Source: Octopus sinensis | Taxonomy: Eukaryota | Assembly (NCBI RefSeq): GCF_006345805.1 | Contig: NC_043023.1 | Coordinates: 10,168,001-10,232,000, forward strand | Direction: 5' to 3' | DNA length: 64,000 bases | In this document: positions 7,690 to 31,600 of the stretch, piece after piece | How positions within the stretch are numbered: position 1 is the first letter of the stretch | Layout: every line of letters starts with the position of its first letter | Position numbers and translations under genes: made by a program | Notes under the pieces: generated by a model | What the model was told of the DNA's origin: nothing | The model's input: the letters and a program-made list of their open reading frames with translations, nothing else | The model's database searches: none

Positions 7690-10600
7690 AAAGCCATATC
7701 ACTGTAATATCTGTGGAAAATCATTTTCTTACAGTAGTGACATTGCTAGACACAAACGTACACATACAGGAGAGAAACCTTATCATTGTGAGATCTGTGG
7801 TAAATCATTCTCTGTAAGCATATCTTAACTGATCACATACGTACACATACAGGAGAGAAACCTTATCATTGTGATATCTGTGGTAAATCATTCTCTCAAA
7901 GCAATATCTTGGACTTTACACAAGCGTATTCATACAGGAGAAAAACCATATCATCGGGAGATCTGTGGTAAATCATTCTCTCATAATAGTTATTTGGTTA
8001 CACACAATCGCATTCATACTGGTGAGAAACCTTATCATTGTCATATCTGTGGTAAATCATTCTCTCATAATCGTCATTGGTTACTCACAATCGCATTCAT
8101 ACTGGTGAAAAACCATATCAGTGTGATATCTGTGGTAAATCATTCTCTCATAATGGTCATTTGGTTACTCACAATCGCATTCATACTGGTGAAAAACCAT
8201 ATCAGTGTGATATCTGTGGTAAATCATTCTCTCATAATGGTCATTTGGTTACTCACAATCGCATTCATACTGGTGAAAAACCATATCAGTGTGATATCTG
8301 TGGTAAATCATTCTCTCATAATGGTCATTTGGTTACTCACAATCGCATTCATACTGGTGAAAAAACCATATCAGTGTGATATCTGTGGTAAATCATTCTC
8401 TCATAATGGTCATTTGGTTACTCACAATCGCATTCATACTGGTGAAAAACCATATCAGTGTGATATCTGTGGTAAATCATTCTCTCATAATGGTCATTTG
8501 TTGTTACTCACAATCGCATTCATACTGGTGAAAAACCATATCAGTGTGATATCTGTGGTAAATCATTCTCTCATAATGGTCATTTGGTTACTCACAAACG
8601 CATTCATACTGGTGAAAAACCATATCAGTGTGATATCTGTGGTAAATCATTCTCTCATAATGGTCATTTGGTTACTCACATCGCATTCATACTGGTGAAA
8701 AACATATCAGTGTGATATCTGTGGTAAATCATTCTCTCATAATGGTCATTTGGTTACTCACAATCGCATTCATACTGGTGAAAAACCATATCAGTGTGAT
8801 ATCTGTGGTAAATCATTCTCTCATAATGGTCATTTGGTTACTCACAATCGCATTCATACTGGTGAAAAACCATATCAGTGTGATATCTGTGGTAAATCAT
8901 TCTCTCATAATGGTCATTTGGTTACTCACAAATGCATTCATACTGGTGAAAAACCATATCAGTGTGATATCTGTGGTAAATCATTCTCTCATAATGGTCA
9001 TTTGGTTACTCACAATCGCATTCATACTGGTGAAAAACCATATCAGTGTGAAATCTGTGGTAAATCATTCTCTCATAATGGTCATTTGGTTACTCACAAA
9101 CGCATTCATACTGGTGAAAAACCATATCATAATGGTCATTTGGTTACTCACAATCGCATTCATACTGGTGAAAAACCATATCAGTGTGATATCTGTGGTA
9201 AATCATTCTCTCATAATGGTCATTTGGTTACTCACAAACGCATTCATACTGGTGAAAAACCATATCAGTGTGATATCTGTGGTAAATCATTCTCTCATAA
9301 TGGGCATTGGTTACTCACAATCGCATTCATACTGGTGAAAAACCATATCAGTGTGAAATCTGTGGTAAATCATTCTCTCATAATGGTCATTGGTTACTCA
9401 CCAAAACGCATTCATACTGGTGAAAAACCATATCAGTGTGATATCTGTGGTAAATCATTCTCTCATAATGGTCATTTGGTTACTCACAATCGCATTCATA
9501 CTGGTGGAAAAAATGAAAAACCATATCAGTGTGATATCTGTGGTAAATCATTCTCTCATAATGGTCATTTGGTTACTCACAATCGCATTCATACTGGTGA
9601 AAAACCATATCAGTGTGATATCTGTGGTAAATCATTCTCTCATAATGGTCATTTGGTTACTCACAAACGCATTCATACTGGTGAAAAACCATATCAGTGT
9701 GATATCTGTGGTAAATCATTCTCTCATAATGGTCATTGGTTACTCACAATCGCATTCATACTGGTGAAAAACCATATCAGTGTGATATCTGTGGTAAATC
9801 ATTCTCTCATAATGGTCATTTGGTTACTCACAAACGCATTCATACTGGTGAAAAACCATATCAGTGTGATATCTGTGGTAAATCATTCTCTCATAATGGT
9901 CATTTGGTTACTCACAATCGCATTCATACTGGTGAAAAACCATATCAGTGTGATATCTGTGGTAAATCATTCTCTCATAATGGTCATTTGGTTACTCACA
10001 ATCGCATTCATACTGGTGAAAAACCATATCAGTGTGATATCTGTGGTAAATCATTCTCTCATAATGGTCATTTGGTTACTCACAATCGCATTCATACTGG
10101 TGAAAAACCATATCAGTGTGATATCTGTGGTAAATCATTCTCTCATAATGGTCATTTGGTTACTCACAATCGCATTCATACTGGTGAAAAACCATATCAG
10201 TGTGATATCTGTGGTAAATCATTCTCTCATAATGGTCATTTGGTTACTCACAACATCGCATTCATACTGGTGAAAAACCATATCAGTGTGATATCTGTGG
10301 TAAATCATTCTCTCATAATGGTCATTTGGTTACTCACAATCGCATTCATACTGGTGAAAAACCATATCAGTGTGATATCTGTGGTAAATCATTCTCTCAT
10401 AATGGTCATTTGGTTACTCACAAACGCATTCATACTGGTGAAAAACCATATCAGTGTGATATCTGTGGTAAATCATTCTCTCATAATGGTCATTTGGTTA
10501 CTCACAATCGCATTCATACTGGTGAAAAACCATATCAGTGTGATATCTGTGGTAAATCATTCTCTCATAATGGTCATTTGGTTACTCACAATCGCATTCA

Positions 10601-28600: not shown

Positions 28601-31600
28601 AATGGTCATTTGGTTACTCACAATCGCATTCATACTGGTGAAAAACCATATCAGTGTGATATCTGTGGTAAATCATTCTCTCATAATGGTCATTTGGTTA
28701 CTCACAAACGCATTCATACTGGTGAAAAACCATATCAGTGTGATATCTGTGGTAATCATTCTCTCATAATGGTCATTTGGTTACTCACAATCGCATTCAT
28801 ACTGGTGAAAACCATATCAGTGTGATATCTGTGGTAAATCATTCTCTCATAATGGTCATTTGGTTACTCACAATCGCATTCATACTGGTGAAAAACCATA
28901 TCAGTGTGATATCTGTGGTAAATCATTCTCTCATAATGGTCATTTGGTTACTCACAATCGCATTCATACTGGTGAAAAACCATATCAGTGTGATATCTGT
29001 GGTAAATCATTCTCTCATAATGGTCATTTGGTTACTCACAATCGCATTCATACTGGTGAAAACCATATCATGTGATATCTGTGGTAAATCATTCTCTCAT
29101 AATGGTCATTTGGTTACTCACAATCGCATTCATACTGGTGAAAACCATATCATTGTGATATCTGTGGTAAATCATTCTCTCATAAGGTCATTTGGTTACT
29201 CACAAACGCATTCATACTGGTGAAAAACCATATCAGTGTGATATCTGTGGTAAATCATTCTCTCATAATGGTCATTTGGTTACTCACAATCGCATTCATA
29301 CTGGTGAAAAACCATATCAGTGTGATATCTGTGGTAAATCATTCTCTCATAATGGTCATTTGGTTACTCACAATCGCATTCATACTGGTGAAAAACCATA
29401 TCAGTGTGATATCTGTGGTAAATCATTCTCTCATAATGGTCATTTGGTTACTCACAAACGCATTCATACTGGTGAAAAACCATATCAGTGTGAATCTCTG
29501 TGGTAAATCATTCTCTCATAATGGTCATTTGGTTACTCACAATCGCATTCATACTGGTGAAAACCATATCAGTGTGATATCTGTGGTAAATCATTCTCTC
29601 ATAATGGTCATTTGGTTACTCACAATCGCATTCATACTGGTGAAAACCCATATCAGTGTGATATCTGTGGTAAATCATTCTCTCATAATGGTCATTTGGT
29701 TACTCACAATCGCATTCATACTGGTGAAAAACCATATCAGTGTGATATCTGTGGTAAATCATTCTCTCATAATGGTCATTTGGTTACTCACAATCGCATT
29801 CATACTGGTGAAAAACCTTATCATTGTGAGATCTGTGGTAAATCATTCTCTCATAAGGTCATTTGGTTACACTCATACAGGTGAGAAACCATATCAGTGT
29901 GAATCTGTGGTAAATCATTCTCTCATAATAGTCATTTGGTTACTCACAAACGCCACATACTGGTGAGAAACCCTATCATTGTGAGATCTGTGGTAATCAA
30001 TTCTCTCAAATAGTCAATTGGTGTTCACAAACGCATTCATACTGGTGAGAAACCATAATCATTGTGAGATCTGTGGTAAATCATTCTCTCATAATAGTCA
30101 TTTGGTTACTCACAACTCGCTCATACAGGATAAAAACCATATCACTGTGAGATCTGTGGTAAATCATTCTCTCAAATAGTCATTTGGTTACTCTCACATC
30201 GTACTTCATACTGGTGAGCGACCTTATCATTGTGAGATCTGTGGTAAATCATTCTCTCATAATAGTCATTTGGTTACTCACAATCGCCTTCATACTGGTG
30301 AGCGACCTTATCATTGTGAGATCTGTGGTAAATCATTCCTCGTAATAGTCATTTGGTTACTCACAATCGCCTTCATACTGGTGAGCGACCTTATCATTGT
30401 GAGATCTGTGGTAAATCATTCTCTCGTAATAGTCATTTGGTTACTCACAATCGCCTTCATACTGGTGAGCGACCTTATCATTGTGAGATCTGTGGTAAAT
30501 CATTCTCTCGTAATAGTCATTTGGTTACTCACAATCGCCTTCATACTGGTGAGCGACCTTATCATTGTGAGATCTGTGGTAATCATTCTCTCGTAATAGT
30601 CATTTGGTTACTCACAATCGCCTTCATACTGGTGAGCGACCTTATCATTGTGAGATCTGTGGTAAATCATTCTCTCGTAATAGTCATTTGGTTACTCACA
30701 ATCGCCTTCATACTGGAGAGCGACCTTATCATTGTGAGATCTGTGGTAAATCATTCTCTCGTAATAGTCATTTGGTTACTCACAATCGCCTTCATACTGG
30801 TGAGCGACGTTATCATTGTGAGATCTGTGGTAAATCATTCTCTCGTAATAGTCATTTGGTTACTCACAATCGCCTTCATACTGGTGAGCGACCTTATCAT
30901 TGTGAGATCTGTGGTAAATCATTCTCTCGTAATAGTCATTTGGTTACTCACAATCGCCTTCATACTGGTGAGCGACCTTATCATTGTGAGATCTGTGGTA
31001 AATCATTCTCTCGTAATAATCATTTGGTTACTCACAATCGCCTTCATACTGGAGAGCGACCTTATCATTGTGAGATCTGTGGTAAATCATTCTCTCGTAA
31101 TAGTCATTTGGTTACTCACAATCGCCTCATACTGGTGAGCGACCTTATCATTGTGAGATCTGTGGTAAATCATTCTCTCGTAATAGTCATTTGGTTACTC
31201 ACAATCGCCTTCATACTCGTGAGCGACCTTATCATTGTGAGATCTGTGGTAAATCATTCTCTCGTAATAGTCATTTGGTTACTCACAATCGCCTTCATAC
31301 TGGTGAGCGACCTTATCATTGTGAGATCTGTGGTAAATCATTCTCTCGTAATTGTGATTTGGTTACACACATTCGCCTTCATACTGGTGAGAAACCTTAT
31401 CATTGTGATATCTGTGGTAAATCATTCTCTCGTAATAGTCATTTGGTTACTCACAATCGCCTTCATACTGGTGAGAAACCTTATCATTGTGAGATCTGTG
31501 GTAAATCATTCTCTCGTAATAGTCATTTGGTTACTCACAATCGCCTTCATACTGGTGAGAAACCTTATCATTGTGAGATCTGTGGTAAATCATTCTCTCA

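Follow-up and report, generated by a model that had tools for sequence, protein, structure and literature searches.

The 64,000-nucleotide stretch of Octopus sinensis DNA analysed here (assembly GCF_006345805.1, contig NC_043023.1, positions 10,168,001 to 10,232,000 of the forward strand; hereafter the window) carries a C2H2 zinc-finger gene in which a large, apparently single exon is mostly occupied by one finger repeated with very little change. Tandem Repeats Finder (TRF) calls a single 84-bp array across 1-32020 of the window, with 381.8 copies and 96% matches, and this call comprises two blocks, 1-7103 and 8048-29833, split by a spacer and diverged fingers (Table 1). The second block, which we term the core, contains 259.4 units of 84 bp in the assembly, and the distance from the ATG at 7650 to the stop TAA amounts to 8141 codons, or 290.75 units. 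The order of the array is far beyond chance. Each unit encodes a complete Krueppel-type finger (C-X2-C-X12-H-X3-H) in which the aromatic and leucine core residues are present, and the array shows both the HTGEKP(Y/F) linker and the 28-residue period. PF00096 and PF13465 scored above their curated cut-offs in all four finger stretches scanned, the closest solved structures for the unit are ZFP568, Aart and PRDM9, and the fold of the finger is not in question.

An earlier sequence-only reading of the window had described about 260 virtually identical fingers with fixed helix positions. The helix claim is borne out, as positions -1 to +6 read HNGHLVT in 235 of 235 intact core fingers in a pattern scan of three frames, and metal ligands, linker and helix are all intact in each of the 235 complete core fingers. 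The near-identity holds in the number of units and in the 194 of 256 anchor-delimited units (8075-29815, a set that includes a few merged doubles) that match the commonest unit exactly, but it is qualified by a lysine variant in 29 of the 259 core units and by six single-base deletions at the same site. The 15 substitutions in 10301-26300 (190.5 units) are without exception the same T>A change, which converts Asn to Lys after the first His and lies outside the recognition helix, and synonymous changes number zero. Over both arrays the Lys variant occurs 45 times at this one site, compared with 24 other substitutions. Lys is also the residue present at that site in the flanking diverged fingers. 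The variant is interspersed at the left edge of the core (units 6, 10, 12, 14, 16, 19 and 21), and no fixed higher-order period was found for it across the core, where its spacings range from 1 to 42.

We also identified layered structure on the 3' side. The proposal that ordinary diverged fingers and a stop codon bracket the array is correct as regards the stop, but the intervening sequence is more than diverged fingers: the helix RNSHLVT is common to 11 of the 20 intact fingers 3' of 29833 (the DNA of its helix motif recurs without mismatch 13 times in the window), and a three-finger block is present twice. The RNSHLVT sub-array differs from the core unit at about 9 of 84 bases, at fixed sites, with intermediate units between the two. 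The RNSHLVT sub-array, the three-finger repeat and the transitional units are features that no assembler invents; with these and the recurrent Lys variant, the array likely reflects real, repeated internal amplification, and would represent an extreme finger minisatellite. The little-polished edges alone contain 27, 42 and 43 units with variants interspersed, and the tandem, near-identical, whole-domain units with layered variants are those of a coding minisatellite. Of the two origins suggested earlier, that of an exon turned satellite by unequal crossover fits these layered variants.

Table 1. Features of the finger gene and the upstream array, in window coordinates
Feature	Position	Strand	Further evidence
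Upstream array, at least 84.6 copies of the 84-bp HNGHLVT unit, runs off window start	1..7103	+	
Abrupt junction between array and intron	7103..7104	+	
Likely intron end, pyrimidine tract, acceptor AG 7352-7353; multi-copy in public runs	7104..7353	+	
Likely 5' untranslated part of large exon, decayed finger remnants	7354..7649	+	Stops in all three frames; contig depth
Start ATG, leader of ~15 residues, four diverged C2H2 fingers; frameshifted in window	7650..8047	+	
Core array, 28-residue finger with linker, Asn/Lys dimorphism	8048..29833	+	
Transitional fingers, very indel-rich	29834..30230	+	
Second sub-array of homogeneous units with helix RNSHLVT; linker mostly HTGERPY	30231..31570	+	
Three-finger higher-order repeat, twice	31488..31991	+	
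Last finger (QRHHLNR) and stop TAA 32070-32072	31992..32072	+	
Likely 3' untranslated region, decayed fingers (~70% to unit), polyadenylation-type hexamers at 32417 and 32432	32073..32440	+	

The upstream array, which the sequence-only reading had missed, stops mid-helix, without diverged 3' fingers, stop or untranslated region, and its indel rate is 1.7/kb in 1-3500 versus 9.7/kb in 3501-7103. Public contigs from four of 24 listed sequencing runs (X1, X2, X9 and X14) were compared with the window across 7060-8130. In X2, contig 17 (depth 871) starts to match exactly at 7104, preceded by 148 other letters, and in X14 contig 9 starts at that same position after 65. The junction of array and intron is therefore not the usual arrangement, and marks either the breakpoint of a tandem duplication in the present copy or a mis-join; as rare joins are lost from contigs, its absence from them is no proof.

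Single contigs of the intron and 5' exon reach depths of 791-1252 in X1 and 729-894 in X2, with about 870 in either run over the intron end, and because these exceed the lowest-depth contigs listed (35-77 in X1, 43-138 in X2), we arrive at a rough figure of 8-25 near-identical gene copies. In X9 and X14, which are RNA by guess only, intron contigs have depths of 3.7-8.6 versus 18-73 for exon contigs, an excess that cannot be assigned to this particular copy, and contig 10 of X14 departs from the window at 7353, its other 29 letters unaligned, which is the pattern expected of a splice. We infer that at least some family copies are spliced at 7353, and the family is probably young, multi-copy and spliced. 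In four organisms, 29-41% of the sequence words from 7110-8300 were recovered, as might be expected for a noisy copy in a group of close species.

No effector domain was identified between the ATG and the first finger, the Pfam scan returning only finger families there, and no N-terminal effector domain of the KRAB, SCAN, BTB or ZAD type was found within the window, any exons further upstream lying outside it. Decayed fingers occur on both sides of the reading frame. The start ATG itself lies inside a decayed finger (7620-7660) and seems to have arisen via a one-base shift there. A further decayed remnant with CGKSF and HTGEK motifs lies 4 kb downstream at 36320-36530, split by a repeat resembling a short interspersed nuclear element (SINE), and this region looks like an old finger cluster.

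The remainder of the window contains further coding and repetitive features. Exons of an ankyrin-repeat gene on the minus strand (55743-56063 and 62690-63460) match the Octopus sinensis protein P0241; the exon at 62693-63460 is identical to an Octopus sinensis protein at 256 of 256 positions, and a second exon of the gene matches that protein at 99%, with 14 of its 15 hits labelled O. sinensis in full and the label of the best one ending after 'Oct'. Part of the 62690-63460 exon (62752-63441) is a coding tandem repeat of 102 bp (6.8 copies, 94%) belonging to an expanded MIB2-like/ankyrin family. A 304-codon stop-free frame on the plus strand (37173-38087), with a CX2CX4HX4C knuckle like that of a retroelement ORF1/gag fragment and no Pfam match, sits between two halves of a SINE-like repeat. 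Other repeats are a 324-bp tandem repeat at 32714-34039 (4.1 copies, 87% matches, 7% indels) just 3' of the finger gene at the end of the noisy zone, a 33-bp minisatellite at 35032-35570 (16.3 copies, 97%, open in three frames) and a 166-bp repeat at 50891-51539 (3.9 copies), and self-comparison revealed near-perfect palindromic stretches at 42816-43016 (~200 bp) and 39280-39551 (~280 bp).

The core was previously taken to be a single reading frame, which the assembly contradicts: of its 47 indels, 45 are frameshifting, and the longest indel-free stretch (10253-18823, 8570 bp) encodes 101 in-frame fingers. The unit's alternative frame is also stop-free, giving an open reading frame (ORF) at 9730-18840 that is taken as a by-product. 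The errors have a distinctive profile. Deletions outnumber insertions by 74 to 14 over both arrays, and 48 of 66 single-base deletions fall in homopolymers or at the variant site, versus a background of 37% of positions. The core edges have 42 indels in 5786 bp, and the centre has 5 in 16000 bp (boundaries set post hoc, after looking); the rate is 5-10/kb beside the flanks versus 0.3/kb in the centre. Edge indels exceed non-variant substitutions about 3.5 to 1, and none of the 69 substitutions in both arrays creates a stop. Low quality extends from about 3500 to 34000, including the 324-bp repeat with its 7% indels, and the repeats at 35032, 50891 and 62752 have 0% indels. Moreover, relative to the window the public contigs have one additional letter after 7657 (four of four runs), after 7819 (three of four) and after 8076 (two of four), and the intron shows about six indel differences from them. 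The letter behind 7657 brings the ATG at 7650 into the finger frame, which is otherwise without any Met. Because of the deletion and homopolymer bias, the crowding at the edges and the letters missing relative to the public contigs, the frameshift indels are likely for the most part consensus errors, though one real indel somewhere in 22 kb may exist. The alternative offered earlier, a polymer of ~8000 amino acids, thus requires that all 45 core frameshifts be errors, which the error profile and contig letters make plausible, and that the assembled length be correct. The exact size, purity and coding status of the array depend on sequence that is poorly assembled.

The purity of the centre has to be read in the same light. 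Lys occurs in 14 of 69 edge units and in 15 of 190 central ones (Fisher p 0.008; boundaries again post hoc), and other substitutions in the core number 12 at the edges versus none centrally. Substitutions and indels thus fall together toward the centre, so purity tracks polish quality. This joint trend is what consensus polishing would be expected to produce, and a lack of variation is therefore weak evidence of biology. The earlier statement that the core lacks synonymous variation, which is accurate for the letters of 10301-26300, had taken that purity at face value; the spotless centre likely owes part of it to polishing. Automated polishing can over-correct repeats, as described in two accounts (10.1101/2021.07.02.450803; PMC7484160). 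In a toy simulation with 12 settings, repeat-only reads were placed out of register and majority-voted. With 120-unit reads at fivefold depth, Lys fell from 0.20 at the edge to 0.07 in the centre, and indels from 0.36 to 0.02 per unit; the observed counterparts are 0.20 and 0.08 for Lys and 0.61 and 0.03 for indels. Repeat-only reads 60-120 units long reproduced both gradients, which were barely visible with 10-unit reads, and the model would imply real repeat tracts of several kb. Real arrays tend to be purest in the middle, and the polishing explanation of central purity is a warning, not proof.

The reading that we favour, and consider somewhat probable, is that of a young, effector-less C2H2 gene whose large exon was turned into a coding minisatellite by unequal exchange and whose length drifts as a passenger. 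Successive internal amplifications, driven by gene conversion together with either unequal crossover or slippage, would have produced first the three-finger block, then the RNSHLVT sub-array and then the HNGHLVT core, the exon array growing to many tens or hundreds of units. The gene itself may belong to a young family of about ten or more nearly identical members. During polishing, reads consisting of repeat alone would have been stacked in the wrong register over the central units, where errors and minority variants were voted away; the assembly likely shows an over-polished centre and, toward the edges of the array, false frameshifts. Were it translated, the gene would yield a multivalent protein that lacks an effector and binds runs of N-G-(C/T) triplets; a few of its fingers would engage DNA at once, so that extra fingers would add little and length could drift. 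Designed helices include HTGHLLE for CGC, RSDHLTT for TGG and HRTTLTN for AGT (Table 1 of PMC7317221), and HTGHLLE has the same residues at -1, +2 and +3 as the core helix. By this analogy each core finger might read N-G-(C/T), the homopolymer might favour (TGC)n or (TGT)n, and the 3' sub-array (TGG)n, all of which are weak predictions. A bolder version, in which the Octopus vulgaris group possesses a young, multi-copy, expressed family of near-megadalton one-finger homopolymers (~290 fingers) that serve to coat triplet repeats of the CAG/CTG kind, or similar ones, in DNA or RNA, strikes us as speculative and quite unlikely.

Several points weigh against the passenger minisatellite as we have described it. 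Passenger status is a default rather than the result of a test, and the 259-unit count in the assembly may be inflated or collapsed. None of the 12 simulated settings matched all four observed rates, the best reaching 0.36 edge indels per unit versus the 0.61 seen, and since real arrays are often purest centrally, the substitution gradient alone proves nothing. Window and high-depth contigs differ by about 8 substitutions in 550 bp of flank; those contigs are therefore sister copies, and the letters corrected from them may not apply to this one. That X9 and X14 are RNA runs is a guess. Finally, the summed depth over a core-type finger (8068-8103) is 114,331, 65,081, 2,834 and 1,849 in X1, X2, X9 and X14, compared with 52,378, 77,091, 6,283 and 3,829 over an unamplified finger (7708-7743); it is not above the unamplified finger in X9 or X14 and is under about twofold higher in X1, so that a depth so scarcely raised gives a high count no support. 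As a copy count, summed contig depth was rejected, since overlapping contigs and paralogues are pooled in it. Depth in X1 is 1.8-4 times that in X2 over 7960-8103, the flank being equal, which is at best a hint of copy variation.

Of the competing explanations, the best to survive is over-expansion during assembly, in which a few tens of near-identical fingers were stretched to 259 and the upstream array and its junction are a false duplication. We regard it as unlikely. The region from about 3500 to 34000 is entirely of low quality and the near-perfect centre is the consensus expected of mis-registered reads, but the error-rich edges by themselves hold 27, 42 and 43 units with interspersed variants, and in the toy model a kilobase-scale error ramp requires long repeat-only reads. 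The two public contigs that run upstream of 7104 into other sequence rather than array would also agree with a false duplication, although the missing junction is no proof given the dropping of rare joins by contigs.

It is very unlikely that the array is real but belongs to a dead gene copy, with all or some of the frameshifts genuine and no protein made. The 45 core frameshifts as assembled, a finger frame that has no Met unless the extra letter behind 7657 is restored, and an array at 1-7103 that lies between the gene and its upstream exon would be consistent with such a copy, and a single real indel in 22 kb would be enough; the indel excess at the edges (~3.5 to 1) and the homopolymer bias, however, are unlike neutral decay, and none of the 69 substitutions creates a stop. 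Least probable of all is a selected giant polymer of ~290 fingers and ~8100 residues that coats a (TGC)n/(TGT)n-type repeat or repeat RNA, its length kept for avidity, since for all the intact ligands, linkers and helices of the 235 complete core fingers, the N-G-(C/T) analogy with designed helices and the spliced, expressed appearance of family members (in runs only guessed to be RNA), zero synonymous change denotes recent copying rather than protein selection, no effector domain is present in the window, fingers joined by canonical linkers fall out of step with DNA once there are more than a few of them, and neither a transcript nor a peptide was seen to cross the array. PMC7317221 mentions in passing that longer linkers are needed.

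The octopus array resembles PRDM9 in its 84-bp units, single terminal exon, near-identical fingers and polarised variants. Mouse PRDM9 arrays consist of 84-bp units, 7-17 per array with one allele of 2 (PMC3890296), and passages of a wider account describe a cluster of five identical fingers in Peromyscus and, in the snail Lottia, concerted evolution of 23 fingers (PMC2779102). The largest identical cluster given for PRDM9 in these passages is thus five, in contrast to one helix throughout the octopus core and ~290 units overall; moreover, PRDM9 is described there as varying at helix positions -1, 3 and 6, whereas the core helices are identical in 235 of 235 fingers. Within the window, KRAB, SSXRD and PR/SET domains were not found upstream of the array, where about 15 residues precede the first finger and 7354-7649 has stops in all frames. 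PRDM9 orthology was rejected on these domains.

With the expanded C2H2 genes of cephalopods, the gene shares a lineage-specific, clustered and young duplicate character and the PF00096 and PF13465 domains. These genes number 1,453 in Octopus bimaculoides (PMC12513265) and 2,785 in D. pealeii (PMC9068888), and the cephalopod expansion is given as gene counts only in passages of these accounts and of PMC13218726. They count genes rather than fingers per gene, and their main-text passages mention no monotonous arrays. Octopus genes are not known to exceed about 60 fingers. A metazoan survey limited its ORFs to 10,000 bp (PMC10547256), so that it would have overlooked an intact gene as long as this one.

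Among 377 retrieved proteins with at least five fingers, the maxima were 77 fingers, a tandem run of 41, 8 identical helices and 6 identical 28-mers. The longest finger proteins of the databases searched (P0157, P0132, P0125 and P0145) have, as here, very many C2H2 fingers and some HTGEKPY linkers. Homologs returned by finger queries were at most 68% identical locally and vertebrate, where named, in most rows. A stretch of the form Y[HQ]C[DE]ICGKSFS occurred in none of the 377, and no finger protein of octopus type came back, although the database includes Octopus sinensis proteins; the searches were swamped or incomplete, which makes this negative weak. The open literature searched, subscription papers lying outside it, yielded no report of hundreds of identical fingers in an array or of an octopus finger satellite.

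In its head-to-tail homogeneous units, diverged edges and higher-order repeats, the array is also comparable to satellites and minisatellites under concerted evolution, but unlike satellite DNA its unit is a complete in-frame protein domain lying between an ATG and a stop. Should the assembled length fail, the locus would be a clear case of polishing making a repeat look perfect. If it holds even roughly, the range of C2H2 arrays among the 377 retrieved proteins (up to 77 fingers and 8 identical helices) would be exceeded several-fold, and a single repeated helix would make the binding target simple to measure. More generally, if the length holds, a PRDM9-like minisatellite turnover would have run away without helix diversification within the cephalopod C2H2 expansion.

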